Below are positions 5,579-39,779 of a DNA stretch of 64,000 nt, piece by piece. Under the pieces are notes generated by a model. The model ran no database searches, had not been told where the DNA came from, and was given only the letters and a program-made list of their open reading frames with translations. Position numbers and translations under genes: made by a program. Source of the DNA: Candidatus Levyibacteriota bacterium (GTDB taxonomy: Bacteria > Patescibacteriota > Microgenomatia > Levybacterales > UBA12049). Each line of letters starts with the position of its first letter. Position 1 is the stretch's first letter. The stretch is taken from positions 931-64,930 of the forward strand of contig DAIDHK010000003.1 in NCBI GenBank assembly GCA_027459725.1. Direction: 5' to 3'.

Positions 5579-7693
5579 ATGTTTTCTCTTGCCCGTAAAT
5601 TGTTACTAACACTGTCAATAGCTCTTATTGTAATAATTTTTGCGATCAACCCGGCTTTTGCACAAACTACTACATCTACCACGCAAAGTGTAACGCCAAC
5701 AGTTGCAGATTATGCTGAAAATTTAAATGTTCAAAAACTGATGATTAACGTCATGAGTGCCATGAGTTGTCAGGTAGCAGGTATTAATGCAGCCTATCCC
5801 AATCAAGCTTGTTACGGCCAAAAGAGCAACCCCTTAAATGGTCAGGTTTCCCTGCAGAACACAAACAACCTCGGACTCATCGGCCTTGCAGTTCAGGGCA
5901 TCAACCTTACTTTTACTCCTATTGCCTCTCCCAATACCTATTTTCAGGATTTAGCTCAAAATTTCGGTTTTGTGAAACATACTTACGCATCTACCACCAC
6001 ACAATGTGCAAACGGCGGAGTATACGGGCAAGGAGTAGGATTTTGCCAGCTGCATCCACTGATGCAAATTTGGACTGTTGTCCGTAATCTTGCCTATTTA
6101 GGTTTTGTAGTAGTATTCATCTTTATTGGATTCGCCATAATGTTTAGAATAAAAATGAATCCTAATACCGTTGTAAGTATTCAAAGTACAATTCCCAAAG
6201 TCATAATTGCCTTGATTCTAATAACTTTTTCCTATGCCATTTCAGGATTTTTAATTGATATCATGTATGTTTCAATTGGAGTCATCACCCAGCTCGGAGA
6301 ACAAGTAGATCCTATTTCAATTAATAGTAATCATCAAAAGAACCCTGACATGGACAAAATTTTTTCTACTTTACAAGGAGATAATCCAATCAGCTTTGCC
6401 AGTCAAATGGTGGGATTAGGAGGAACAGCCAGTAACACTGCTCACGCTTTAGGAGATGCTGCTGGAGGAATTATAGGATCGTTCGGAGAAGGCGGTACAA
6501 TAATTGCCGCTTTGATTGGCGGCCTGGCGGGATCCAAAGTAGCCTCGGCACTTGGTTCGGGTCTGCAAATTGGAGGAGCAATAGTTGGAACAGCCATTGC
6601 AGCTATCACCGGAAATCCCGAACTCATACCAGCACTTTCTATGGGCGGAGCGAATATAGGTGGAGCTTTGGGACAAGTTATCGGTATCTCAGCTGGTGTT
6701 GGCAGCGCTATAAATAACGCCAGCGGCACTGTTGCCTGGATCGGCTATGTTGCAGCTGTGCTTATTTTATTTGTCGGAATACTAATTTCACTAGCACGGC
6801 TTTGGCTAACTTTGATTATGGCATATATAACTATTTTAGTAGATGTTGTCTTCGCACCGTTTTGGATTTTACTAGCAATTGTACCAAAATCTAAATTCAC
6901 TTTTACTTCCTGGATCAAGGATATGATTGCTAATCTGGCTGTTTTTCCGATGGTTATCGGCATTTTTGTCATAGCAAAGATATTCATCGATGCATTTAGT
7001 ACAGGCGTTGGGAATGGTGAGTTATTTGCTCCACCTCTTGTAGGCTTAGGCTCATTAAATGATGGGGCTAATACCATGCAAGGGATTATTGGCCTTGGTT
7101 TTATATTTATGGCACCTTCCCTGCTTAATATCTCACGCTCAATTTTTGGAGCGCCTAAATCAACTTTAATGTCTAATAGTATACAAAGCTTTATGATAGG
7201 AGCACAATCAGGCAGAAGAATTTGGGGAGTAACTGGCGGTAGGTTAATCGGTGTTGATAAAAACGGAAAGCCTAAACCATTCAGTGCAATGCTTGCGAAT
7301 AATCGCGCTGAAAGGGCCCATCACAAAACTGATGAACTACTTACTCTTCAAAGAGATCTTGATGCAGGCAAACTTACAGGCTTTGATGCAGTACGAGCTA
7401 AAGCCAAACTTCGACTCGCCAATGCGGGAAGAGGTTTCTCTAATCTGGGTCAAAATAGTACAGTAGAATTTAGGGAGAAACTTCGTAGTCGCTTAGACGA
7501 ACTACAAAGATCGGGTAGGTTTGATGGCCCTCAAATGGAAAAGTATATGAAAGACTATGCTGCCCGAGAAGTGGCCAGGTCAACAGGGCGAGCAAAATTA
7601 GCTACTAGTGAAAATCAGGTACTCGAGAAAGTTTTACAGGAATACAATCTAGGTGTTAAGCAACCAAATCCCACTCCCGGTGGCTCGCATTAG
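5579..7693 (+). CDS. VirB6/TrbL-like polytopic membrane protein. Signal peptide, Cys-containing extracytoplasmic N-domain, Gly-rich multi-TM core, about 170-aa charged cytoplasmic C-terminal tail. The ORF opens at 5540 with TTG, but the ATG at 5579 begins a canonical signal peptide.
   Basis: MFSLARKLLLTLSIALIVIIFAINPAFAQ signal peptide. There are at least 6 long hydrophobic segments with GxxxG/glycine-zipper runs. A basic/acidic C-terminus. Its size and topology match the TcpH/PrgH/VirB6 class, and it is in a locus with VirB4. Confidence 0.45.
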   Translation: MFSLARKLLLTLSIALIVIIFAINPAFAQTTTSTTQSVTPTVADYAENLNVQKLMINVMSAMSCQVAGINAAYPNQACYGQKSNPLNGQVSLQNTNNLGLIGLAVQGINLTFTPIASPNTYFQDLAQNFGFVKHTYASTTTQCANGGVYGQGVGFCQLHPLMQIWTVVRNLAYLGFVVVFIFIGFAIMFRIKMNPNTVVSIQSTIPKVIIALILITFSYAISGFLIDIMYVSIGVITQLGEQVDPISINSNHQKNPDMDKIFSTLQGDNPISFASQMVGLGGTASNTAHALGDAAGGIIGSFGEGGTIIAALIGGLAGSKVASALGSGLQIGGAIVGTAIAAITGNPELIPALSMGGANIGGALGQVIGISAGVGSAINNASGTVAWIGYVAAVLILFVGILISLARLWLTLIMAYITILVDVVFAPFWILLAIVPKSKFTFTSWIKDMIANLAVFPMVIGIFVIAKIFIDAFSTGVGNGELFAPPLVGLGSLNDGANTMQGIIGLGFIFMAPSLLNISRSIFGAPKSTLMSNSIQSFMIGAQSGRRIWGVTGGRLIGVDKNGKPKPFSAMLANNRAERAHHKTDELLTLQRDLDAGKLTGFDAVRAKAKLRLANAGRGFSNLGQNSTVEFREKLRSRLDELQRSGRFDGPQMEKYMKDYAAREVARSTGRAKLATSENQVLEKVLQEYNLGVKQPNPTPGGSH

Positions 7694-12217: not shown

Positions 12218-14872
12218 ATGCATTGTTATCCAAGAATATCAAAATTACTGTTTCCATTTCTTGTTTTTTTTATAGTTTTTGTTTCACTGTATAGAATTAA
12301 CTATGCTTTTGCAACGAGTAGCAATACGAGGTCATCAGGTACTTCTTTGGGAAGTGATAGTACAGTTTATACTATAGCTAACGGAGTAACTGTCACACAA
12401 TCGCCTAAAAATGTCTATGAAAATACCTCAAATATAACATTGTTGTTTAATATACCTGCTAGTAGTAATAATAATACCCCATACTATATTTTATTCTGGA
12501 ATCAGGCAAGCAATTGGCCTGACTACAATCATTGTGAGACTATAGGAAGTGAATTTCTTCTGGGAGGATGGGATAATGCTATGGGTATAGGTGGATGGTC
12601 AGGAGGCTCAAATGGAAAATGCACATTGCTTAATCCTAATGATTGGGGCAAAGATACATATACACTAGTACAAGATAAAACAGCAAAAGAGTTGACACCA
12701 TTGGGAAACAAATGGGGATATCAAGTATCAGTAAACACTTTACCTGGGGAAAGTATTAAATATAAAATTTGGCAAGGTGATGTTGAATCAAGTTATCAAG
12801 CATCCCAGATGATTGGTCAAATTAACATAGGACAATGTACTCAATCACAAAATGGCTGTCCTGGAATCGCGGTAGACAGCTACCCGGTTCAGTATGACAC
12901 TAATTTTCCTCTTTACATCGCCAATCCACATGCTGATACAGCCTACATAGTATGGTGGAAAGGATCTAATACAGTAATCTGGTCAGGCTCGTTCACTACT
13001 AACCAAATAAAAAGTGCTTCGAAATTCAACGTTATTGGCAGTAATAACTCCACCGTGTCAGTTCCCGCAATTAAGCTGCAAAACAATGGCCAGGACGTGA
13101 CACAAATAGTTTCCAGCAGCGAAGATTCGAATCTTCCAATTGATAGCAGCAATGATTTTAAGTACAAAACATTATGTCTATATCAAGCGACGCCTCAAAA
13201 TTTAGCCTCAATAATTTCAAATTTCTCGCTAAAATGTGACTCAACCGCCAAATCAACCCGAGTCTATTTCGGTATTAATGGGCAACCACTCGGGTCTGGA
13301 ACGTTACTGTCGAATGGTAACATCGGTGCTCCATCTGCTTCTGAGAACTTTAACCTGCAGTCTGTTAACACCGGATTCTTTCTACCCTGTATTTCCCCCA
13401 CGCCCACCCCAGTTAATCAAGCATATAATAGCAAGAACTCTTCAAATACATCATTTGCTGATGCTTGGAAAAATATATTGGCAGACGCCGCTTTCTTCTT
13501 TACCGGTCAATCTGCCATGCCAAGTCCAACTTCTTCCAACATAAATCAACAACTCGCCTACTCACAAATTACCCCTGCCCAAACAACTCCAGAATTTTTA
13601 ATGTCCACAACTAATCAGTCAACCACTCCCATTAGCGTCGGCCCCGCTTCTGTATCCCCAGGGGATACTTTCGTTGTTGGTTTAACATCTCCGATAAGCA
13701 ATAATTACACTCTATCTATACACGATGGTAGCAACAATAGCTTACTAAATAGCAACATTACTCAATATTGCCAATCAGGAAAAGCATGCGACTTTATTAT
13801 AAATAGCAGTAAGTATTCTAATTACAAGTTCACATTCCCTACAAATCCGCAAAACTTTCAGATCACTATCGCCGATAATAATAAAACCGTAGGTATGACA
13901 GATGTGGCATTCACCCAATCAGCATCTTCCAATGTTAATGACAGTCAAACTCAGAACACAACCACAACAAAAAATATACAAAACGATGGAACTATTACTA
14001 TACAGAATCTTGGTAACAAGCAGAATACTGGCTCTGCTAATATTTATTCCGATGACGCTTTATCGGTTTATATTTCATATAACAGCAAAACTTCTATTAA
14101 AAACTGCTCTGTAGCTATCGCGGTAAATCAATCAGCTATTACCGCACTATCGCCACAAACCTGTAACAATAGTACTTCACCGAATTCTAACACAAACTTA
14201 TTGCCTTTAGATCTATCAAAATATAGTCAGTTTGCATCTATTACTACCCCTACTGACCTCAGTCTAAGTGCGGTTGCCTATGACACTAATGGTAACATAC
14301 TTTCAATAAAGAAAGACTTTACAATCTATCCGGTTTGTGGTACTCAAGAATGCAATGGATCATGTATAAATGTGCCTGGACAAAGCCAGATTTATTGTGC
14401 AGAACCAACTAGTACGCCTACTCTTAGCCCAACACCAAACGCTCAACAGTCTATTTGCAATTCATGTTTGGCGAGTGGTACAAGCGATTGTAGTAGCGCC
14501 TGCACTGCTGCTACAACAGTTTCTGATACTCCAAGCGTAGAGACTCCAACATCATACCCTACTCCTGTAAATATAGGCTTCTCCCCCTGTTATCAGGTAG
14601 ATACCGCCATTGGAATGATAAGCACAGATCCTATTTCCTTTGTTAATAATATGTTTGATATTTTATTAAGCCTAAGCGGCGGCATTGCTCTTCTGATTAT
14701 CATCTACAACGGTTACCGCTTGTTAATCTCACGGGGCAATCCCGATGCCATCAAAAAAGCCCGTGAGGGTATTACCTCTGGTATTATTGGCATCATCTTT
14801 GCTATTCTATCTATTGCCATTCTACAAACTATTGGCGTTGATATATTACATTTGCCAGGTTTTGGCAATTAA
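12218..14872 (+). CDS. secreted Ser/Thr/Asn-rich surface protein (about 885 aa) with a C-terminal VirB2/TrbC-type pilin-like hydrophobic hairpin. Candidate pilus-tip adhesin or minor pilin fusion. The ORF opens at 12182 with TTG; the ATG at 12218 is preferred.
   Basis: Signal peptide MHCYPRISKLLFPFLVFFIVFVSLYRINYAFA. Long low-complexity Cys-containing ectodomain. The last about 90 aa 'GGIALLIIIYNGYRLLISRGNPDAIKKAREGITSGIIGIIFAILSIAILQTIGV' have the same helix-loop(K/R-rich)-helix pattern as the small pilin paralogs downstream. Confidence 0.5.
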   Translation: MHCYPRISKLLFPFLVFFIVFVSLYRINYAFATSSNTRSSGTSLGSDSTVYTIANGVTVTQSPKNVYENTSNITLLFNIPASSNNNTPYYILFWNQASNWPDYNHCETIGSEFLLGGWDNAMGIGGWSGGSNGKCTLLNPNDWGKDTYTLVQDKTAKELTPLGNKWGYQVSVNTLPGESIKYKIWQGDVESSYQASQMIGQINIGQCTQSQNGCPGIAVDSYPVQYDTNFPLYIANPHADTAYIVWWKGSNTVIWSGSFTTNQIKSASKFNVIGSNNSTVSVPAIKLQNNGQDVTQIVSSSEDSNLPIDSSNDFKYKTLCLYQATPQNLASIISNFSLKCDSTAKSTRVYFGINGQPLGSGTLLSNGNIGAPSASENFNLQSVNTGFFLPCISPTPTPVNQAYNSKNSSNTSFADAWKNILADAAFFFTGQSAMPSPTSSNINQQLAYSQITPAQTTPEFLMSTTNQSTTPISVGPASVSPGDTFVVGLTSPISNNYTLSIHDGSNNSLLNSNITQYCQSGKACDFIINSSKYSNYKFTFPTNPQNFQITIADNNKTVGMTDVAFTQSASSNVNDSQTQNTTTTKNIQNDGTITIQNLGNKQNTGSANIYSDDALSVYISYNSKTSIKNCSVAIAVNQSAITALSPQTCNNSTSPNSNTNLLPLDLSKYSQFASITTPTDLSLSAVAYDTNGNILSIKKDFTIYPVCGTQECNGSCINVPGQSQIYCAEPTSTPTLSPTPNAQQSICNSCLASGTSDCSSACTAATTVSDTPSVETPTSYPTPVNIGFSPCYQVDTAIGMISTDPISFVNNMFDILLSLSGGIALLIIIYNGYRLLISRGNPDAIKKAREGITSGIIGIIFAILSIAILQTIGVDILHLPGFGN

Positions 14873-14874
14873 CT

Positions 14875-15240
14875 ATGTTAAAAGAACATTTATTAGCCTT
14901 ATCTATTCCTGGGGAGAATGGGAGTAGCACTAATATCGTAATGCCTAACGCAGTAAACTGCGGCAGTAATGGCTGTTTGAACACAGTCATGCAATACATC
15001 ATACAATGGCTTTTCGTAGGAGCCATCATTCTTTGTCTAGCTTACCTAATCTGGGGCGGGATTGATTGGACAATGTCCTATGGAGACAAAACGAAAGTGC
15101 AAAAAGCCCGTTTAAAACTTGTGTATGCCATTATTGGTTTATTTATAGTTTTCCTCGCTTTCTTCTTTGTTAATTTGGGAGGACACTTACTTGGTCTACC
15201 TCTTACTAATGTCAGTACAACTATCAATACAACTCCTTAA
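14875..15240 (+). CDS. VirB2/TrbC-like pilin-family protein, paralog 1 (121 aa)
   Basis: N-terminal leader with a Cys pair, then 'WLFVGAIILCLAYLIWGGIDWTMSYGDKTKVQKARLKLVYAIIGLFIVFLAFFFV' (two TM helices separated by a short basic loop). It starts 2 bp after the fusion gene. Confidence 0.5.
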   Translation: MLKEHLLALSIPGENGSSTNIVMPNAVNCGSNGCLNTVMQYIIQWLFVGAIILCLAYLIWGGIDWTMSYGDKTKVQKARLKLVYAIIGLFIVFLAFFFVNLGGHLLGLPLTNVSTTINTTP

Positions 15241-15262
15241 CTTTCAACTATAATAGAACAGC

Positions 15263-16495
15263 ATGAAGGCTTCCCTCTTTTATTTTTTAAGTGCCTTTTT
15301 ACTTTTACTTTTAAGTTTGGTCGCAGTTATTGGCCCGCATACAGAACTTATAGACGTAACAGAATATCACTGTTATGCCAGTATCTTCTGGACTGGGCAT
15401 TTACAAATCAACAAAACTGAACAACGATACTGTTTATCTGAGATTAAATCAAACCAAATACATAAATATAAATTACCCCAGGAGTATCCTCTACTTAGCC
15501 TGTTTATCTTTTCTCTTCCCCTACTTTCTCCTTTCAGCTACAGCCTAGGTTTTAGACTATTAATGCTGGTATTTTTACTAACTATCTGGATGTATTTTTT
15601 CAAAGTTAAAAAATTTACTTCAGGTATAATATTTCTATTATTAATCACGCTTGGACTTAGCTCAGTTACCTTTAACCGTTATGACTTAAGTGCTACCACT
15701 TTAACCTTTTTTGCCATAATACTGGCTTATAATAAAAAGTTTCTTCCCAGTTACTTATTATTAGCACTAGCAACGTTTCTCAAAATTTATCCCCTTTTTC
15801 TTATACCGTTGGTCTTCCTTTTTGAATTACAAACCCATAAGCATAAACTACTCAATCTAAAAAATTACTACTTCGTTTCACTTGGAGTCATTGCATTAGC
15901 CTTACTGCTAATACTTTCACTCAAGCTTGATTTTGTTCAAACGCTTGCACCCCTACAGTATCAAGCAGCCAGGCCACTACAAATAGAATCTATCCCCGCT
16001 TCCATCTTTTTGCTAACTAGCTTCGGAAAAGTATGTTTTATTCAATCTTTTGGTTCACTTAATATTCTTCATTCTATTAACCATCAATGTTCTCCCAACT
16101 TAGTCAGTCAAACTCTGGAGACTATCTTTAGTATCCTAATGCTATTAAGCCTTATAGTCGTCTATCTAAACTTCTTCAAAGGTAGAATTAAATTCACAGG
16201 CGCCGTGGTCTTATTAATCTTAAGTCTTCTTATCTTTAACAAAGTCTTGAGTCCGCAATATTTTATTTGGCTGGCTCCTTTTTTAGCTCTAAAATATAAA
16301 AAAATCTCATTAAATACACTTATCTGGTTTATACTCTTTGCGCTAACTTATTTAATTTACCCAATAATGTATTCCCAAACTAGTATGAGTAATTTACTGG
16401 GAGTAATTTCCGTACGTAACATTCTTTTAGTTTTTCTATATATCTATACATGGAAAGAAGTATTACATAAATTCAAGAAACAGTCTGTAAAATAG
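15263..16495 (+). CDS. polytopic membrane protein, possibly a GT-C-fold glycosyltransferase (410 aa)
   Basis: About 11 TM helices. An acidic 'DVTEY' motif lies in the first predicted external loop, reminiscent of the GT-C D-E-x-x-Y motif. It sits between the pilin genes. Confidence 0.4.
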   Translation: MKASLFYFLSAFLLLLLSLVAVIGPHTELIDVTEYHCYASIFWTGHLQINKTEQRYCLSEIKSNQIHKYKLPQEYPLLSLFIFSLPLLSPFSYSLGFRLLMLVFLLTIWMYFFKVKKFTSGIIFLLLITLGLSSVTFNRYDLSATTLTFFAIILAYNKKFLPSYLLLALATFLKIYPLFLIPLVFLFELQTHKHKLLNLKNYYFVSLGVIALALLLILSLKLDFVQTLAPLQYQAARPLQIESIPASIFLLTSFGKVCFIQSFGSLNILHSINHQCSPNLVSQTLETIFSILMLLSLIVVYLNFFKGRIKFTGAVVLLILSLLIFNKVLSPQYFIWLAPFLALKYKKISLNTLIWFILFALTYLIYPIMYSQTSMSNLLGVISVRNILLVFLYIYTWKEVLHKFKKQSVK

Positions 16496-16499
16496 AACT

Positions 16500-18041
16500 A
16501 TGAACAAATCTATTAAGCAATGTTTATCATTTATAAAAAAGCATATCTATCTCATCTTGTTAATTAGCTTTTTCTCACTTTATACTCTGGAGGGCATTTA
16601 TTTGCTCGATCCAGATTTCGGTTGGCACTTACGTTTTGGTGAAATAGTATTACAAACCCACAGTGTCCCCTTAAAAGATCTATTTTCATATACCATGCCA
16701 AGCTATGACTTCATTAATCATGAATGGTTTTCAGACGTTATTATCGCCGTTATTTACCATTTAACCGGACTTGTAGGAGTAGCTATATTTTTTGGACTAT
16801 TCGTCACTATTGGACTTGGAGTAGTAGTTAACATTGCCCAAAAGAAAGATAAGATTGGTTTCTGGCTGTCACTTTTAACTATGGTCGCTGTAACAATGGT
16901 GCAATTTGCCGGCATTCGCCCACAAGCTTTAAGCTGGACATTCTTTGTTTTAGTCTGGTATTTGTTGGATATCTCAAAAAATAAATGGCGCTTTATAATC
17001 TTGCCTATCATTTTCCTCATCTGGGCTAATCTGCACGCCGCCTTTGCTTTAGGGTTATTTCTATTTTTTGTTGCTGTCATCAATTCTTTGCTTAAAAAAG
17101 ATAGAAGCAGTATTTATCTGTTAATCTCCTTCATCATATCGACCGGGGCTACCTTGATTAACCCTTATGGATTTAAATTATGGCAAGAAGTCATTCTCAC
17201 CTCAGCTTCCCCGCAAATCTCCACTGTTGAAGAATGGACGCCAAGTTTCACCCACATTATCTTTCCCATGTGGCTATTTATTGATTTCTCATTAATTCTC
17301 CTCTGGTTCAACAGATCTAACGTAGCTAAGAAAAATATTTTTTTACTAACTGTTATTGGCATACTTTTTTTAGTAGGCATACGACAGGCTCCGCTATTTA
17401 TGTTGTTTTTATTACCTTTAGCAATTGAGGCAGTGAATGATTTCATTGACCAGGCAAAAAAATATCAGTATGCCATTAAACGCCTAAAAGTTGCATCACT
17501 AATAGTAACTATCATCACTGTTGTTTTCTGTATTATTACCTTATGGCCTCTGGAATCCAGCTTATGGAAAAGCGGATTTAACATCCAAAAAAGTATTTCA
17601 TTAACTTACCCAAGCACTTCTGTCAAATATTTAAAAACTCACCCATTTAAAGGCAATTATTATTCAATATATAACTGGGGTGGTTATTTGATCTGGCAAC
17701 TCCCTAACAAAAAAGACTTCATAGATGGTCGTATGCCTACCTGGATTAATCCCAATGCACCCAAAAATGAAAGCAAAAATGCATTGCAGGATTTTCTCAA
17801 GATAGACAATCCAAAAATACTGGACAAAACAATTCATAAGTATCATATAACCACCCTAATAATCGCACCATTGAAACAATCTGTTCCTCAATGCTGGTGG
17901 CTGCAAAACTGGTGTAATCAAGTCATCAAGCAAAGAAATAAGCAAAATCAGCCACTTGAAACTTATCTCCATATTCATCACTGGCATGAGCTAATACACG
18001 ACAAAGTCTCAGTTGTTTATCAGTTATCTGTTAGTCAGTAA
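16500..18041 (+). CDS. polytopic membrane protein, possibly a GT-C-fold glycosyltransferase (PMT/ArnT/YfhO-like), 513 aa
   Basis: About 11-12 TM helices plus a C-terminal soluble domain. An acidic loop 'LDPDFGWHLRFGE' follows TM1. It starts 4 bp after the previous gene. Confidence 0.4.
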   Translation: MNKSIKQCLSFIKKHIYLILLISFFSLYTLEGIYLLDPDFGWHLRFGEIVLQTHSVPLKDLFSYTMPSYDFINHEWFSDVIIAVIYHLTGLVGVAIFFGLFVTIGLGVVVNIAQKKDKIGFWLSLLTMVAVTMVQFAGIRPQALSWTFFVLVWYLLDISKNKWRFIILPIIFLIWANLHAAFALGLFLFFVAVINSLLKKDRSSIYLLISFIISTGATLINPYGFKLWQEVILTSASPQISTVEEWTPSFTHIIFPMWLFIDFSLILLWFNRSNVAKKNIFLLTVIGILFLVGIRQAPLFMLFLLPLAIEAVNDFIDQAKKYQYAIKRLKVASLIVTIITVVFCIITLWPLESSLWKSGFNIQKSISLTYPSTSVKYLKTHPFKGNYYSIYNWGGYLIWQLPNKKDFIDGRMPTWINPNAPKNESKNALQDFLKIDNPKILDKTIHKYHITTLIIAPLKQSVPQCWWLQNWCNQVIKQRNKQNQPLETYLHIHHWHELIHDKVSVVYQLSVSQ

Positions 18042-36445: not shown

Positions 36446-36687
36446 AATATATTTAATTGTAGTTGTAGTAGTGTATCGGGAAATGTGGAAAAATGCAAGA
36501 GCATAATGCCCTATAAAACGACGATAATTATAAAAACGAAGCTGTTATTCAGCTTATAATTATATCTTCGTCATGTAATAATAAAATATTGGTGGTTGTC
36601 AATTCGTGACTAAAAGAATGTGGAAAAGATGTTGATAAAATTGGGGAAAACCTGTTGATAAAGTGTAAAGTGAGTTATACACTTTTT
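36446..36687. promoter_or_regulatory. dnaA-dnaN intergenic DnaA-box cluster (oriC-like). Four co-oriented 9-mers within 180 bp.
   Basis: TGTGGAAAA at 36484..36492 and 36619..36627. TGTTGATAA at 36630..36638 and 36653..36661. Each is 1 mismatch from TGTGGATAA, the complement of TTATCCACA. The context is AT-rich. Confidence 0.5.
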
Positions 36688-38109
36688 TTACACTCTAAGT
36701 AACTGTTTTATCCCCGAGATATCCTGAGAGATATGCACATTTCCTTCAAGCTGACCTTCAATCTTTTCCACACCGTGCATAACAGTCGTATGGTCTCTAC
36801 CTCCTAATATGTTGCCAATTTCGACAAGGGTTAATTTAAGTTCTGCTTTAAGCATATACATCGTTATCTGACGAGCTCTCACTAAAGAGGCATCTCTCTT
36901 GGGTCCTTTGAGTTGAGTGGGTTTAATGCTGTAAAAATTACATACTTCTTTAATGATGTCATCTGCATGGAGGCTTCCCCGCTTCTCTTCGGTCTCTTTT
37001 CCAAGTGCCTTTAGAGCAACTTCTGATGTGATTTCACTTTGCTGAAGTGATGTTGCTAAAGTAATCGCTCGCAGAAGAAGACCTTCTAGTGATCGGGTAT
37101 CCTGGGCTCCGTTTGCTAACAACTTTGCTACTTCAATGGATAATTCCCAGCCGTATTTTTCTGCTTTCTTTAAAAGGATGGCTGTTTTAAGTTCAAAATC
37201 AGGAGCTTCTATATCAACGGTTAATCCGCCCGCAAAGCGAGAAGATAATCTTTTTTCCAACTTTTTTATCTCCTGTGGAGGGCGATCGGATGACAAAACA
37301 ATCTGAGAACCCTGGTCAATGAGAATATTAAATGTATGAAACAATTCTTCTTGGACGCGGTCCTTGCCTTCAATAAATTGAATGTCGTCAATTAATAACA
37401 GGGCTGCAGTGCGAAAGCGTTTCTTCATGCGCGAAGTGTCGTTGTTTTTGATAGCCTCAACCACTTCATTTGTAAACTCCTCACTGGTGAGGTAAATAGT
37501 CTTTTGTTCGGGATTTTGCATATATATATGGTTTGCAATGGCATGCAACAAATGGGTTTTCCCTACCCCAACCGGTCCATAGATAAAAAATGGATTGTAG
37601 GATTGCCCTGGGTTTTGAGCTACGTTTTGAGAGGAAACAAAAGCTAATTGATTGGTGGATGAAACGGCGAATGTAGCAAAGTTATATTCTTTGCGGACCC
37701 TGGGAAGATGTCCAATCATTGAAGGTTGAGAAGGTTTAATCTCGGTTTTAAGTATAGGGGTAGTCTTTCTGTCTTTTTCAGATAAGCCATTCAGTTCTGT
37801 AGCAAAAAGAGGTCCAGTTTTTTCTTTAATAGGTGATTTATTCAATGCCTGGACTATAAATAAGAGTTCATTGTTTTCTTTAGTTTGTTCATCCAGTGAT
37901 GCTTTTAACTCTTTATAAAAGCGTTTGTATAATAGGTCTCCCACTACGGTAGAAGGGGTGGCGATGGTGGCAATATTATCTTCTAGGCTAAGTAAACCGG
38001 TATTAGCAAAAAGGGTAAAGAAATTGGCAGTTGAAACTTTCTTTTTTAGCTCTTTAAGCACGTGCTGCCAGATTGTATCAAGTCGATCATTCATACTGTT
38101 AATAAACAA
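36688..38109 (-). CDS. dnaA: chromosomal replication initiator DnaA
   Basis: Walker A 'GPVGVGKTHLLHAIANHI', sensor/box VII, and the C-terminal DNA-binding signature '...GGRDHTTVMHGVEKIEG'. Confidence 0.9.
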   Translation of the reverse strand: MFINSMNDRLDTIWQHVLKELKKKVSTANFFTLFANTGLLSLEDNIATIATPSTVVGDLLYKRFYKELKASLDEQTKENNELLFIVQALNKSPIKEKTGPLFATELNGLSEKDRKTTPILKTEIKPSQPSMIGHLPRVRKEYNFATFAVSSTNQLAFVSSQNVAQNPGQSYNPFFIYGPVGVGKTHLLHAIANHIYMQNPEQKTIYLTSEEFTNEVVEAIKNNDTSRMKKRFRTAALLLIDDIQFIEGKDRVQEELFHTFNILIDQGSQIVLSSDRPPQEIKKLEKRLSSRFAGGLTVDIEAPDFELKTAILLKKAEKYGWELSIEVAKLLANGAQDTRSLEGLLLRAITLATSLQQSEITSEVALKALGKETEEKRGSLHADDIIKEVCNFYSIKPTQLKGPKRDASLVRARQITMYMLKAELKLTLVEIGNILGGRDHTTVMHGVEKIEGQLEGNVHISQDISGIKQLLRV

Positions 38110-38283
38110 GCAAGGAGTTTTTGTGTATAACTCAAAAACTAAACTTCTACTTGGACATTAGAAGAAGCGGAATTTTGTTTGTATAATGTAGTGTACTGCA
38201 TGTGGATAACTGTCGCAAGAGAAAAAAAGACGAATATGGAGGACTTATATATAGCGTTATTAAGAATCTGTGACAATAAGTGT
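38110..38283. promoter_or_regulatory. dnaA upstream region with a consensus DnaA box (TGTGGATAA at 38201..38209) and a near-consensus box (TGTGTATAA at 38122..38130)
   Basis: Exact complement of TTATCCACA seen in the sequence. Confidence 0.45.
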
Positions 38284-38300
38284 CTTGACCGCGACTAATA
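38284..38300. repeat. 17-bp direct repeat CTTGACCGCGACTAATA flanking the IS (left copy)
   Basis: Identical to 39585..39601. Confidence 0.8.
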
Positions 38301-39584
38301 TGTAAGTAATACTCTGAATTGACGCAAAATTGTAAGTCTCAATTGACGCATTGTTTCCCGCCATAAGATTTCCAAATAAATGGAAAAGGTACATACTCTG
38401 GGGTAGGAGAAGTTACTCACGTAGTCGAGTTTTCCAAAAGACTTCTCCGTTGGCTTCAAAGCAGACTTTGTTCCCTTTAATCTTTACCCAGATACGGCAC
38501 CCAATATAGCCTGGGGGGACAAAGTAGTGTTTACCATAAAGAGAGATCGTTGACTCTCTGGTAACCTTACGTCTTTCCTCAACCGTTAGTAATGTTTGCA
38601 GTTCTAACTGGGTTAATCTTCTTTCAGAAGTATGATAACGGGAAGCATGGGTAATATTACTAAAATACCTACTCTTGTAGACATAATTGTATCTGGCAAG
38701 CCAGATCTCCCATTGCCCGTTTACCTCCTCAAGAGTTTTTGCCTTAATTACTTCCGGAACAAAATCTGTTTGGACAAATTTCCAAAACCGCTCAATCTTT
38801 CCCTTAGTTTCTGCATGGGTTGCCCAGTGAAGCTTAATACCCACTTGTGTGGCATACCACTGGTAATCAGCAGTTCCGAGTCTGGTTCTAGCTTTGTATT
38901 GAGACCCTTCGTCCTGCAGCATTGCATCAGGAAGACCGCACTTGCTTAAAGACTCATACCAGATTTGAAACACATTCATTTTCCCTTGAGTCCTGTACCA
39001 TTTGCCGGCAGGAACAAACCGGGAATGGTCATCAAGTGTTGCGATAAGGTACAAAATACCAATGTTGGGGAAATTGATTTTCCCTTGAATGTCTGTCTGC
39101 CATAATTGATTAGGATACTCTGCTTCAAATCGGATAATTGCTTTGACTCGCTTGTTGTTCTCCCGAGTTAGTCCCTCACTTCTTAAGATATTACCAACAG
39201 CAATTTCTGATACCGACAAATCAAGTTTATCCCGAATATTTCTGGCCGATCGCCATCTGTCCTGTTTCTTTAAACTGATAACCTTTTCCTTTTGGTGTGA
39301 AGTCAGTTTGTAGTGATTGCTGTGGCGATGATCTATAAGGCCTGCTTTGCCGCTTGCTACAAATGCTTTTCTGTATCGTTCAATTGTACTTCTACTACAT
39401 ACCAGAAGTGTCATTGCCTGCTGGATACTAACCTCTCCTTGCAGAAGGTTTTGGATGACGCTTTGTCGCTCTTCTATAGGTTTTTTCATTTGCTCACCTC
39501 CTTTTAGAGATGAGCTTAAATTGATTTGTCGATTCCTTCAACTGAGAATTACAAACGATACATCAACTGAGAGTTTGCTTTACA
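38301..39584 (-). mobile_element. IS481-family-like insertion sequence (1284 bp) with imperfect terminal inverted repeats (TGTAAGTAATACTCTGAATTGA... / ...TCAACTGAGAGTTTGCTTTACA)
   Basis: Single transposase ORF, terminal TGTAA/TTACA ends (about 17 of 24 positions match), flanked by a 17-bp direct repeat. Confidence 0.7.
38413..39489 (-). CDS. DDE transposase, IS481-family-like (N-terminal HTH plus rve integrase core), 358 aa
   Basis: HTH 'SIQQAMTLLVCSRSTIERYRKAF'. DDE core 'WQTDIQG', 'IATLDDHSRF', 'LQDEGSQYKA'. Confidence 0.8.
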   Translation of the reverse strand: MKKPIEERQSVIQNLLQGEVSIQQAMTLLVCSRSTIERYRKAFVASGKAGLIDHRHSNHYKLTSHQKEKVISLKKQDRWRSARNIRDKLDLSVSEIAVGNILRSEGLTRENNKRVKAIIRFEAEYPNQLWQTDIQGKINFPNIGILYLIATLDDHSRFVPAGKWYRTQGKMNVFQIWYESLSKCGLPDAMLQDEGSQYKARTRLGTADYQWYATQVGIKLHWATHAETKGKIERFWKFVQTDFVPEVIKAKTLEEVNGQWEIWLARYNYVYKSRYFSNITHASRYHTSERRLTQLELQTLLTVEERRKVTRESTISLYGKHYFVPPGYIGCRIWVKIKGNKVCFEANGEVFWKTRLRE

Positions 39585-39601
39585 CTTGACCGCGACTAAT
39601 A
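39585..39601. repeat. 17-bp direct repeat CTTGACCGCGACTAATA flanking the IS (right copy)
   Basis: Identical to 38284..38300. Confidence 0.8.
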
Positions 39602-39608
39602 CCATGAA

Positions 39609-39637
39609 TTTACATATTAAGATGCATTTGCTATAAT
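39609..39637 (+). promoter_or_regulatory. sigma70-like promoter for rpmH: TTTACA -17 bp- TATAAT
   Basis: -35 at 39609..39614 and -10 at 39632..39637. The rpmH ATG is 8 bp downstream of the -10. Confidence 0.45.
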
Positions 39638-39644
39638 TAAGCTT

Positions 39645-39779
39645 ATGGAAAAGCTAATTAAACTTAAAAAAATCAAAAGAAAGAGAAAACATGGTTTCCT
39701 TGCTCGTTCGAAAAGCCATAATGGACGTAAAGTCTTAAAGCGTCGTCGTGCTAAAAAGAGATCTACTTTATCTCTTTAA
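39645..39779 (+). CDS. rpmH: 50S ribosomal protein L34
   Basis: 44 aa 'MEKLIKLKKIKRKRKHGFLARSKSHNGRKVLKRRRAKKRSTLSL'. It is below the ORF-track length cutoff and was found by hand. Confidence 0.85.
   Translation: MEKLIKLKKIKRKRKHGFLARSKSHNGRKVLKRRRAKKRSTLSL

Follow-up and report, generated by a model that had tools for sequence, protein, structure and literature searches.

In the 64-kb window analyzed here (the whole stretch, taken from contig DAIDHK010000003.1 of assembly GCA_027459725.1; positions are counted from the first letter of the window), an insertion sequence (IS) of 1,284 bp, at 38301-39584, lies between dnaA and rpmH in what had been taken to be a replication origin region. Judged from the sequences, what explains its position is probably not oriC but the element's own choice of target. 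It belongs to a clade of IS from Patescibacteria whose members are found in one orientation beside TTGACA-like -35 hexamers, and the -35 box of the rpmH promoter is at the distance from it that is seen elsewhere in the clade. The clade is probably a new, promoter-homing one, and the window copy a textbook example of it.

The evidence comes from the flanks of related copies. DNA was recovered for ~60 contigs bearing IS of the clade, and the copies were oriented by their transposase gene, IRL being the terminal inverted repeat upstream of that gene and IRR the one downstream. When the 25 unique IRL-side flanks are compared, TTGACA is present on the opposite strand in 16 of them, as an exact TGTCAA whose end is 22-24 nt away from the tip of the IS (binomial P 4e-34, with the background for the hexamer being its frequency measured in the same sequences). 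With up to one mismatch allowed, the count at the same distance is 20 of 25 (binomial P 1e-29), and with one further site, L001, added the figures are 17/26 and 21/26. No comparable hexamer column is present at any distance in the 27 unique IRR-side flanks. The TTGACA-like hexamer reads away from the IS, on its IRL side, and in most motif-bearing sites a -10-like hexamer (TAnnnT-type) follows 16-18 bp past the -35, with a weak extended-TG signal. At most sites with a called gene, the neighbor on the IRL side runs divergently to the transposase gene. Hexamer and target-site duplication are separated by exactly 7 bp in all ten of the motif-bearing sites whose duplication is known and, since this gap is constant, the 15-17-bp variation in duplication length is all at the promoter-distal cut. 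The window copy has the geometry of the clade: its tip at 39584 is followed by the 17-bp duplication, 7 bp and then TTTACA-17-TATAAT, which is the best promoter match of the region and one of 15 near-consensus promoter-like sites in the window. The first-pass annotation of this DNA was right about the existence of the rpmH promoter, but not in placing it immediately after the right repeat, as it starts 7 bp later.

The 17-mer CTTGACCGCGACTAATA that brackets the window copy as a direct repeat is not extendable at either edge, and at up to three mismatches it has just two matches in the 64 kb (chance expectation 0.10). The earlier description of a 1,284-bp IS with imperfect TGTAA/TTACA ends, one DDE transposase and identical 17-bp flanks is confirmed in its coordinates, open reading frame (ORF) and repeats, and its suggestion that the repeat is a target-site duplication is upheld by the clade, whose duplications are 15-17 bp long and each different in sequence. 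The worry that the 17-mer might occur at many loci independent of the IS is not borne out in the window, where the sequence is unique to the two flanks. Mobility is supported, since relatives occupy many sites, each with a duplication of its own, and since a related genome has no IS in its rpmH-dnaA spacer. What does not stand is the remark that 17 bp is unusually long: 15-17 bp is normal in the clade, and long-duplication classes of both IS481 and IS1202 have been published. IS481 includes a ~15-bp class within a range of 2-15 bp that is mostly 6 (ISfinder values quoted in PMC10045372), and IS1202/ISTde1 has a class of 15-17 bp (for this and the ~15-bp IS481 class together, PMC10045372; bioRxiv 10.1101/2022.12.17.520857; PMC10132070).

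An automatic search for duplications inside single contigs of the clade gave nothing convincing. Flanks are usually mismatched within one contig, and the same left and right flanks turn up in differing combinations on different contigs; these contigs are chimeric at their flanks, as assemblers exchange flanks between the copies of a multicopy IS. Once left flanks were matched with right flanks from other contigs as well, 12 duplications could be rebuilt for the clade (two of 15 bp, eight of 16 bp and two of 17 bp), all of different sequence; four of them, those of the window, L204, L207 and L210, each have both copies on one contig. Contigs with the same IS show all combinations of a few left and right flanks (L169-L178, L179-L188, L189-L195 and L201-L206). 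It needs to be kept in mind more generally that synteny across an IS in metagenome-assembled genomes (MAGs) is unreliable, as IS flanks in metagenome assemblies are often chimeric.

To the left of the IS are dnaN and dnaA, on the minus strand, and to its right rpmH, rnpA, yidD, yidC and jag, on the plus strand. The minimum of cumulative GC skew is at ~34-42 kb, and of the 11 matches to TTWTNCACA in the window five are clustered at 36484-38201, so assignment of the origin to the vicinity of dnaA is reasonable. The DnaA boxes are in two groups, one in the dnaA-dnaN spacer, where there are further one-mismatch boxes, and one upstream of dnaA (38122, 38201), the latter being the boxes that had correctly been noted on the dnaA side. 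The IS begins 75 bp beyond the perfect box and neither group is interrupted. On sequence grounds the dnaA-dnaN spacer is a candidate for a second, or the main, oriC module, untouched by the IS. An Rfam scan of 35-42 kb detected no RNA family. The named relatives of the DnaA protein are from Patescibacteria, some of them on contigs of 1.0-1.6 Mb, which supports the earlier remark that the genome is a reduced one.

A relative, L208 (GCA_027459745.1), has 78-82% nucleotide identity with the window and a DnaA that is 87% identical. In it rpmH is followed by a 223-bp spacer and dnaA, with no IS between. L208 keeps both the rpmH promoter and the block of DnaA boxes, which is nearly identical and includes the putative dnaA promoter, and the box-bearing parts of the dnaA-dnaN spacer are also conserved. 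The stretch that holds the 17-mer is not conserved, and the 17-mer itself is absent there. The earlier claim that the IS splits oriC has no visible support, as all recognizable boxes are contiguous on the dnaA side and the insertion point is not conserved in this relative.

The comparisons show the anatomy of the copy, its duplication, the lack of the IS in L208 and a constant geometry across sites. The DDE transposase joins the IS to its target with a stagger of 15-17 bp, and repair of the staggered cuts would have given, in the window, the 17-bp direct repeat. Insertion in this clade is in fixed orientation beside a TTGACA-like -35, from which the promoter-proximal cut is 7 bp upstream; IRL is toward the promoter, and the transposase gene points away from it. 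The landmark in the window would be TTTACA, the -35 box of rpmH, whose promoter is strong. Duplication and 7-bp gap together restore native sequence to about -60 upstream of rpmH, and so leave the rpmH promoter, the dnaA promoter and boxes, and both genes intact. With no gene disrupted, the site works as a safe harbor in a gene-dense genome. Transposition may be of the copy-out-paste-in type, to go by related families. The hexamer would be read directly by a helix-turn-helix (HTH) domain of the transposase, which is preferred at roughly even chances to tethering by sigma or RNA polymerase. For the clade as a whole, there is a slight leaning toward the proposition that all these rve-type IS of Patescibacteria home to the -35 of sigma-70-type promoters in fixed orientation and precisely to the base (offset 7 bp, stagger 15-17 bp), which would be an independent invention of promoter-targeted transposition.

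A number of observations weigh against such a general rule, or against its application to the window. The 26 sites represent ~16 IS lineages. The motif is missing from its expected place in five of the 26 sites, L196, L207, L211, L179 and L003. L196 and L211, the clearest motif-less cases, come directly after a co-oriented gene, just beyond its stop codon; L207 too is without a motif; at L179, which is beside another IS, the hexamer is at 36 nt, and at L003, from a 40-45%-identical subclade, it is at 14 nt. All the sites are survivors in natural genomes, and selection against genic insertion contributes to the pattern. Eight of the 12 duplications rely on cross-contig pairing of flanks, and on two long contigs, L083 and L088, no duplication accompanies the promoter motif. 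The window contains no second copy or fragment of the IS, so just a single copy is visible, and its exact transposase protein is on record for one contig only. The comparison with IS-free relatives that had been advocated did give an IS-free spacer, that of L208, but not an exact empty site, as the spacer is too diverged for the pre-insertion sequence to be reconstructed.

Two of the exceptional lineages have features of their own. A second copy of the L003 subclade, L086 (hexamer at ~13 nt), is outside the 26 because its left flank is short. These copies, from Levyibacteriota and an unbinned contig (IRL tips at L003 5907 and L086 32), have tips TGTTACACG with the hexamer 13-14 nt away. If the 7-bp gap is the same, the two sites would imply a duplication of ~6-7 bp, shorter by approximately one helical turn, which echoes the discrete duplication classes of the superfamily. 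In one Patescibacteria lineage an IS4-type (DDE_Tnp_1) transposase gene adjoins the IS (L179 451-1341, L180 1663-2553), and there the duplication is within a hairpin-like inverted repeat, GCACCAGACTC..GAGTCTGGTGC, and the -35 motif is not at its normal distance.

It was also considered that the target hexamer mimics either TGTAAA, as found at the IS tip, or TTGAC, the core of the end-binding motifs. This was rejected as a general rule since subfamilies with the tips TGTGGA or TGTCAT, and with binding motifs such as TTTTCG, target the same TTGACA landmark.

The targeting may be real and yet depend on host machinery, with the transposase docking on promoter-bound RNA polymerase, at its alpha C-terminal domains or at sigma region 4, and cutting the DNA left exposed around -44 to -60. 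This deserves to be taken seriously though it is considered rather unlikely. The targeted sites have the look of real promoters, most hexamers having a -10-like sequence at 16-18 bp, a weak TG and a divergent gene. The 17-bp staggered region in the window is 7-24 bp upstream of the -35, at about -44 to -60, the part of a promoter that UP elements and alpha C-terminal domains occupy. The 7 bp from cut to -35 matches the numbers for the TnGBS and ISLre2 elements, and a shared steric constraint would fit (PMC3942029). Direct read-out is nevertheless favored because the information is concentrated in the -35 hexamer, which varies far less than it does in ordinary sets of promoters, whereas the -10 is conserved to an ordinary extent, and because the only -10 that L210 offers at normal spacing is a poor one (TAAAAC). 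Exact TTGACA accounts for 65% of the targeted hexamers, as against two of the 15 near-consensus promoter-like sites in the window. A further difficulty for tethering is that no interaction motif is known and that the transposase is unrelated to the Mutator-like enzymes.

Other explanations dispense with promoter targeting altogether. On one such view the insertion would be essentially untargeted and would have survived because the rpmH-dnaA spacer is among the few dispensable stretches of a reduced genome; the interest, as in the first-pass annotation, would be in the tolerance of an origin region for a 1.3-kb insert. The compact gene layout of a Patescibacteria host, the lack of conservation of the insertion point in L208 and a GC skew that puts the origin nearby would all suit this, but it is very improbable, as selection alone cannot give a constant 7-bp offset, one orientation and a near-invariant hexamer at 21/26 unrelated sites, and no DnaA box is cut off from the others. 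Promoter-proximal target choice explains the position better, and what seemed an anomaly of the origin would be an ordinary, harmless insertion with a clear cause. Co-option of the IS at the origin, with transposase read-through or an outward promoter in IRR feeding dnaA expression or origin function, is more improbable still. The transposase gene and dnaA are co-oriented and no terminator-like site was found between them, yet the insertion has left whole the conserved putative dnaA promoter and the DnaA box inside it, L208 manages without the IS, and the same type of element adjoins many unrelated genes. The length of the repeat, unusual for most IS families, might bring to mind the att-like recombination core of a site-specific system instead of an insertion duplication. 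This is in practice refuted by 12 sites having 12 unrelated repeats of 15-17 bp, by the enzyme being a DDE transposase and by the absence of the 17-mer from the empty site of L208, and it retains only a vanishing probability.

Oriented promoter targeting by DDE elements is known for the Mutator-like TnGBS, ISLre2 and ISKra4 only, and tethering to sigma or RNA polymerase was proposed for TnGBS (PMC3942029). A literature search found no report of promoter targeting by IS481 or IS1202, nor of these IS from Patescibacteria, though novelty is not thereby proven. The window clade has in common with the TnGBS group the oriented targeting of promoters (21/26 sites, with 7 bp in 10/10), a proximal cut ~6-9 bp from the -35 and the logic of a safe harbor; for TnGBS and ISLre2 that position of the cut is implied by the published 13-17 bp from inverted repeat to -35 together with duplications of 8-9 bp (PMC3942029). 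The contrasts are with the window clade's 15-17-bp duplications, its 22-24 bp from inverted repeat to -35 and its IRL as the promoter-facing end, where p-MULT 3 elements have IR-right. Hosts are also different, mainly Firmicutes and others for TnGBS, ISLre2 and ISKra4 but Patescibacteria for the window clade, and so are the enzymes, Mutator-like (p-MULT), with a signature motif linked to promoter targeting, in the former and rve/IS481-like, of an unrelated superfamily, in the latter. Pfam detected HTH and rve domains only in the window transposase, with no MULE/Mutator-type domain, and its best NCBIfam matches are IS481, ISNCY, IS3, IS630 and IS21. The window clade behaves like the TnGBS group but is not a member of that family.

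Within the same broad superfamily, the ISAba32/ISAjo2 subgroup of IS1202, which targets dif/pdif, also shows oriented, landmark-guided insertion with IRL facing the landmark. Its landmark is a XerC/D site and not a promoter, and its duplication of 5-6 bp abuts the landmark without a 7-bp gap. Surveys of IS1202 give dif targeting for the ISAba32 subgroup only and none for other subgroups (bioRxiv 10.1101/2022.12.17.520857; PMC10132070).

On sequence evidence, the superfamily also shows oriented landmark targeting of a second kind, with tRNA genes as the landmark. Elements of ~1,270-1,290 bp in MAGs of Solirubrobacterales, Limnocylindria and Chloroflexi (L020, L021, L027, L042, L051, L054 and L126) have duplications of 15-17 bp, up to 18, and are 0-5 nt from the 3′ end of different genes for tRNA (Ser, Gly, Ala, Leu, Lys). 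In L020, for example, the IS is at 5601-6885 and the gene for tRNA-Ser at 6888-6978 on the minus strand. In most of these elements the duplication is followed by GATTCGAACCC, which is the T-arm in reverse complement. The two that were scanned, L020 and L027, are bona fide IS481 (231-253 bits, over the cutoff). Taken together, IS481 at tRNA ends, dif-targeting IS1202 and the window clade point to oriented integration guided by landmarks as a property that is general in the superfamily and has largely gone unrecognized.

If the targeting rule is true, a second and evolutionarily independent lineage of transposases uses bacterial promoters as safe harbors, and comparison of the lineages makes the choice between -35 read-out and RNA polymerase tethering testable. 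It would help explain how IS persist in the gene-dense, ~1-Mb genomes of Patescibacteria, and the insertions would serve as a free marker, readable by computer, of where promoters lie in an uncultivated phylum and of what its -35 consensus is. The transposase, a single compact protein, would also be an enzyme whose integrations fall at a predictable distance from a landmark of 6 bp.

The family placement of the element is intermediate. The best NCBIfam model for its transposase is IS481 (NF033577), with 150.3 bits over residues 8-269, below the cutoff of 224. Other clade members (P0047, P0089, P0118) score 135-143 bits on it, and the control IS481 elements L020 and L027 score 253 and 231. The second model is NF033594 (ISNCY_2), where 92.6 bits over residues 11-330 again fall short, the cutoff being 250. 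The ISAba32 transposase of plasmid pD36-4, the reference sequence used for IS1202, scores 481 bits on NF033594, so ISNCY_2 is the model of the IS1202 group. The catalytic core is 32% identical over 189 amino acids to the bona fide IS481 transposase of L020 (E 1e-23), and the C-terminal part is alignable to ISAba32, with 25% identity over 153 amino acids (E 1e-5). The earlier label "IS481-like" was fair in that IS481 is the top model, though the curated threshold for membership is not reached. From these comparisons the element is assigned to the IS481/IS1202 superfamily, as one of an unassigned clade that is abundant in Patescibacteria metagenomes.

With IS481 the window element shares its best model score, the similarity of the core, 5′-TGT...ACA-3′ ends, a single ORF for an rve-type DDE transposase with an N-terminal HTH, and duplications that are ~15 bp in some IS481 (PMC10045372). 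Unlike IS481 it has a score below the cutoff, Q and not K/R seven residues after the catalytic E (E+7), a C-terminal domain outside the IS481 model and a duplication of 17 bp, beyond the 2-15 bp of IS481, which the 15-17 bp of the clade overlaps at the 15-bp class only. Q in place of K/R at E+7 is a signature of the IS1202 family (bioRxiv 10.1101/2022.12.17.520857), and IS1202 nests inside IS481 in trees (PMC10045372). At this position ISAba32 has Q (VERANRTLQ, read from the alignment) and L020 has K (by eye from the translation). ISTde1 of the IS1202 family, compared by description, is 1,327 bp long with a 17-bp duplication and a 394-amino-acid transposase, and the window IS is like it in its TGT...ACA ends, size of ~1.3 kb and single HTH and DDE transposase. 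With the ISTde1 subgroup it shares TGT termini, 15-17-bp direct repeats, Q at E+7 and a DD pair. It is shorter, at 1,284 bp and 358 amino acids, than any listed member of that subgroup (1,320-1,990 bp; transposase of ~400-500 amino acids, 394 in ISTde1), for which, unlike the window clade, surveys report no promoter targeting. Clade elements are 1,278-1,287 bp long. Two copies of a binding site per end are shared with IS1202 members of the ISAjo2 type (PMC10132070).

In the window IS these copies are of a TCTCA(A/G)TTGA-type motif, two at each end and 24-25 bp apart, with those of the IRL end being the reverse complement of the IRR motif. They are presumed, from their sequence and arrangement, to be the transposase-binding sites of the two ends, and relatives in the clade have the same two-module layout. 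The copy is intact and was probably inserted recently. Coordinates of the element and of its surroundings are in Table 1.

Table 1. Features of the insertion sequence and its surroundings, in window numbering
Feature	Position	Strand	Remarks
dnaA-dnaN spacer	36446..36687	.	71% A+T; DnaA-box-like sites at 36484, 36619, 36630, 36653
dnaA	36688..38094	-	homologues annotated as DnaA of Patescibacteria
DnaA box, one mismatch	38122..38130	-	TTATACACA
Putative dnaA promoter	38190..38218	-	TTGCGA-17-TACACT; DnaA box TTATCCACA in spacer; 66 bp from duplication
DnaA box, perfect	38201-38209	-	TTATCCACA
Left 17-bp target-site duplication	38284..38300	.	CTTGACCGCGACTAATA; exact direct repeat
IRR, terminal inverted repeat downstream of transposase gene	38301..38326	+	begins TGTAAG; 18/26 positions identical in alignment of both ends; TGT...ACA termini
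IRR-end motif pair	38313..38350 (38313-38326 and 38337-38350)	+	TCT(G/C)AATTGACGCA, direct copies; from repeat search
Transposase gene	38413..39489	-	358 amino acids; sole ORF, fills the element
IRL-end motif pair	39538..39575 (39538-39550 and 39563-39575)	-	TCAACTGAGA(A/G)TT; from repeat search and end alignment
IRL, terminal inverted repeat upstream of transposase gene	39559..39584	-	plus strand terminates TTTACA
Right 17-bp target-site duplication	39585..39601	.	exact direct repeat
Gap from right duplication to -35 hexamer	39602..39608	.	7 bp, CCATGAA
rpmH promoter	39609..39637	+	TTTACA (-35), 17-bp spacer, TG-extended TATAAT (-10); 11/12 consensus
rpmH	39645..39779	+	ribosomal protein L34, 44 amino acids; leads rpmH-rnpA-yidD-yidC-jag block; Pfam labels from L208 orthologues

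Pfam assigns residues 6-102 of the transposase to winged-helix/HTH domains and residues 126-222 to an rve integrase core, with a sub-threshold match to a Mu-transposase C-terminal domain at 304-350 in a C-terminal region that is strand-rich. None of the catalytic residues D133, D193 and E233 is missing, and all three are invariant in an alignment of 24 homologues, as is Q240, at E+7 (within GKIERFWKFVQ). The distance from D193 to E233 is 40 residues. D153 and D154 are invariant in the clade, but the IS481-type L020 also has DD and the pair is non-discriminating. Homologues form at least 120 database clusters of proteins of 350-370 amino acids, nearly all exactly 358, with 68-84% identity, and the single cluster with a named source is from Patescibacteria. 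Most come from contigs ~1,280 bp long, which is the signature of a multicopy repeat breaking assemblies. The window's own genome is absent from the loci returned by the scan of species-representative genomes. Relatives on viral contigs and plasmids have at most 28% identity and their annotation is inconsistent. A sequence search of the PDB gave just a marginal HTH match, to Tc3 transposase, and AlphaFold2, given the alignment of 24 sequences, produced a poor model (mean pLDDT 61.5, catalytic core <50).

Some further features of the promoters and neighboring DNA merit mention. The identification of TTGCGA-17-TACACT as the dnaA promoter is an inference from its sequence. There is in addition a weak TTGTCA-17-TATATA directed toward dnaA (38249-38283, minus strand), on the IRR side and 7 bp past the left duplication. 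The original target thus had a -35-like hexamer on either side, the two being divergent and both 7 bp away from a cut, though with the stretch not being conserved in L208 this may be chance. In L208 genes for a TraG-like P-loop protein (DUF87/AAA_10) and a TraC-like protein are present at 14274-17106, ~5-8 kb beyond dnaN, and suggest a conjugation-type module near its origin region. The ATG of rpmH is 7 nt past the -10 TATAAT with no Shine-Dalgarno sequence between (window 39632-39647), and the same is seen in L208 and at another targeted gene, in L210 (~1498-1510). From this layout, leaderless mRNAs are likely in these Patescibacteria.

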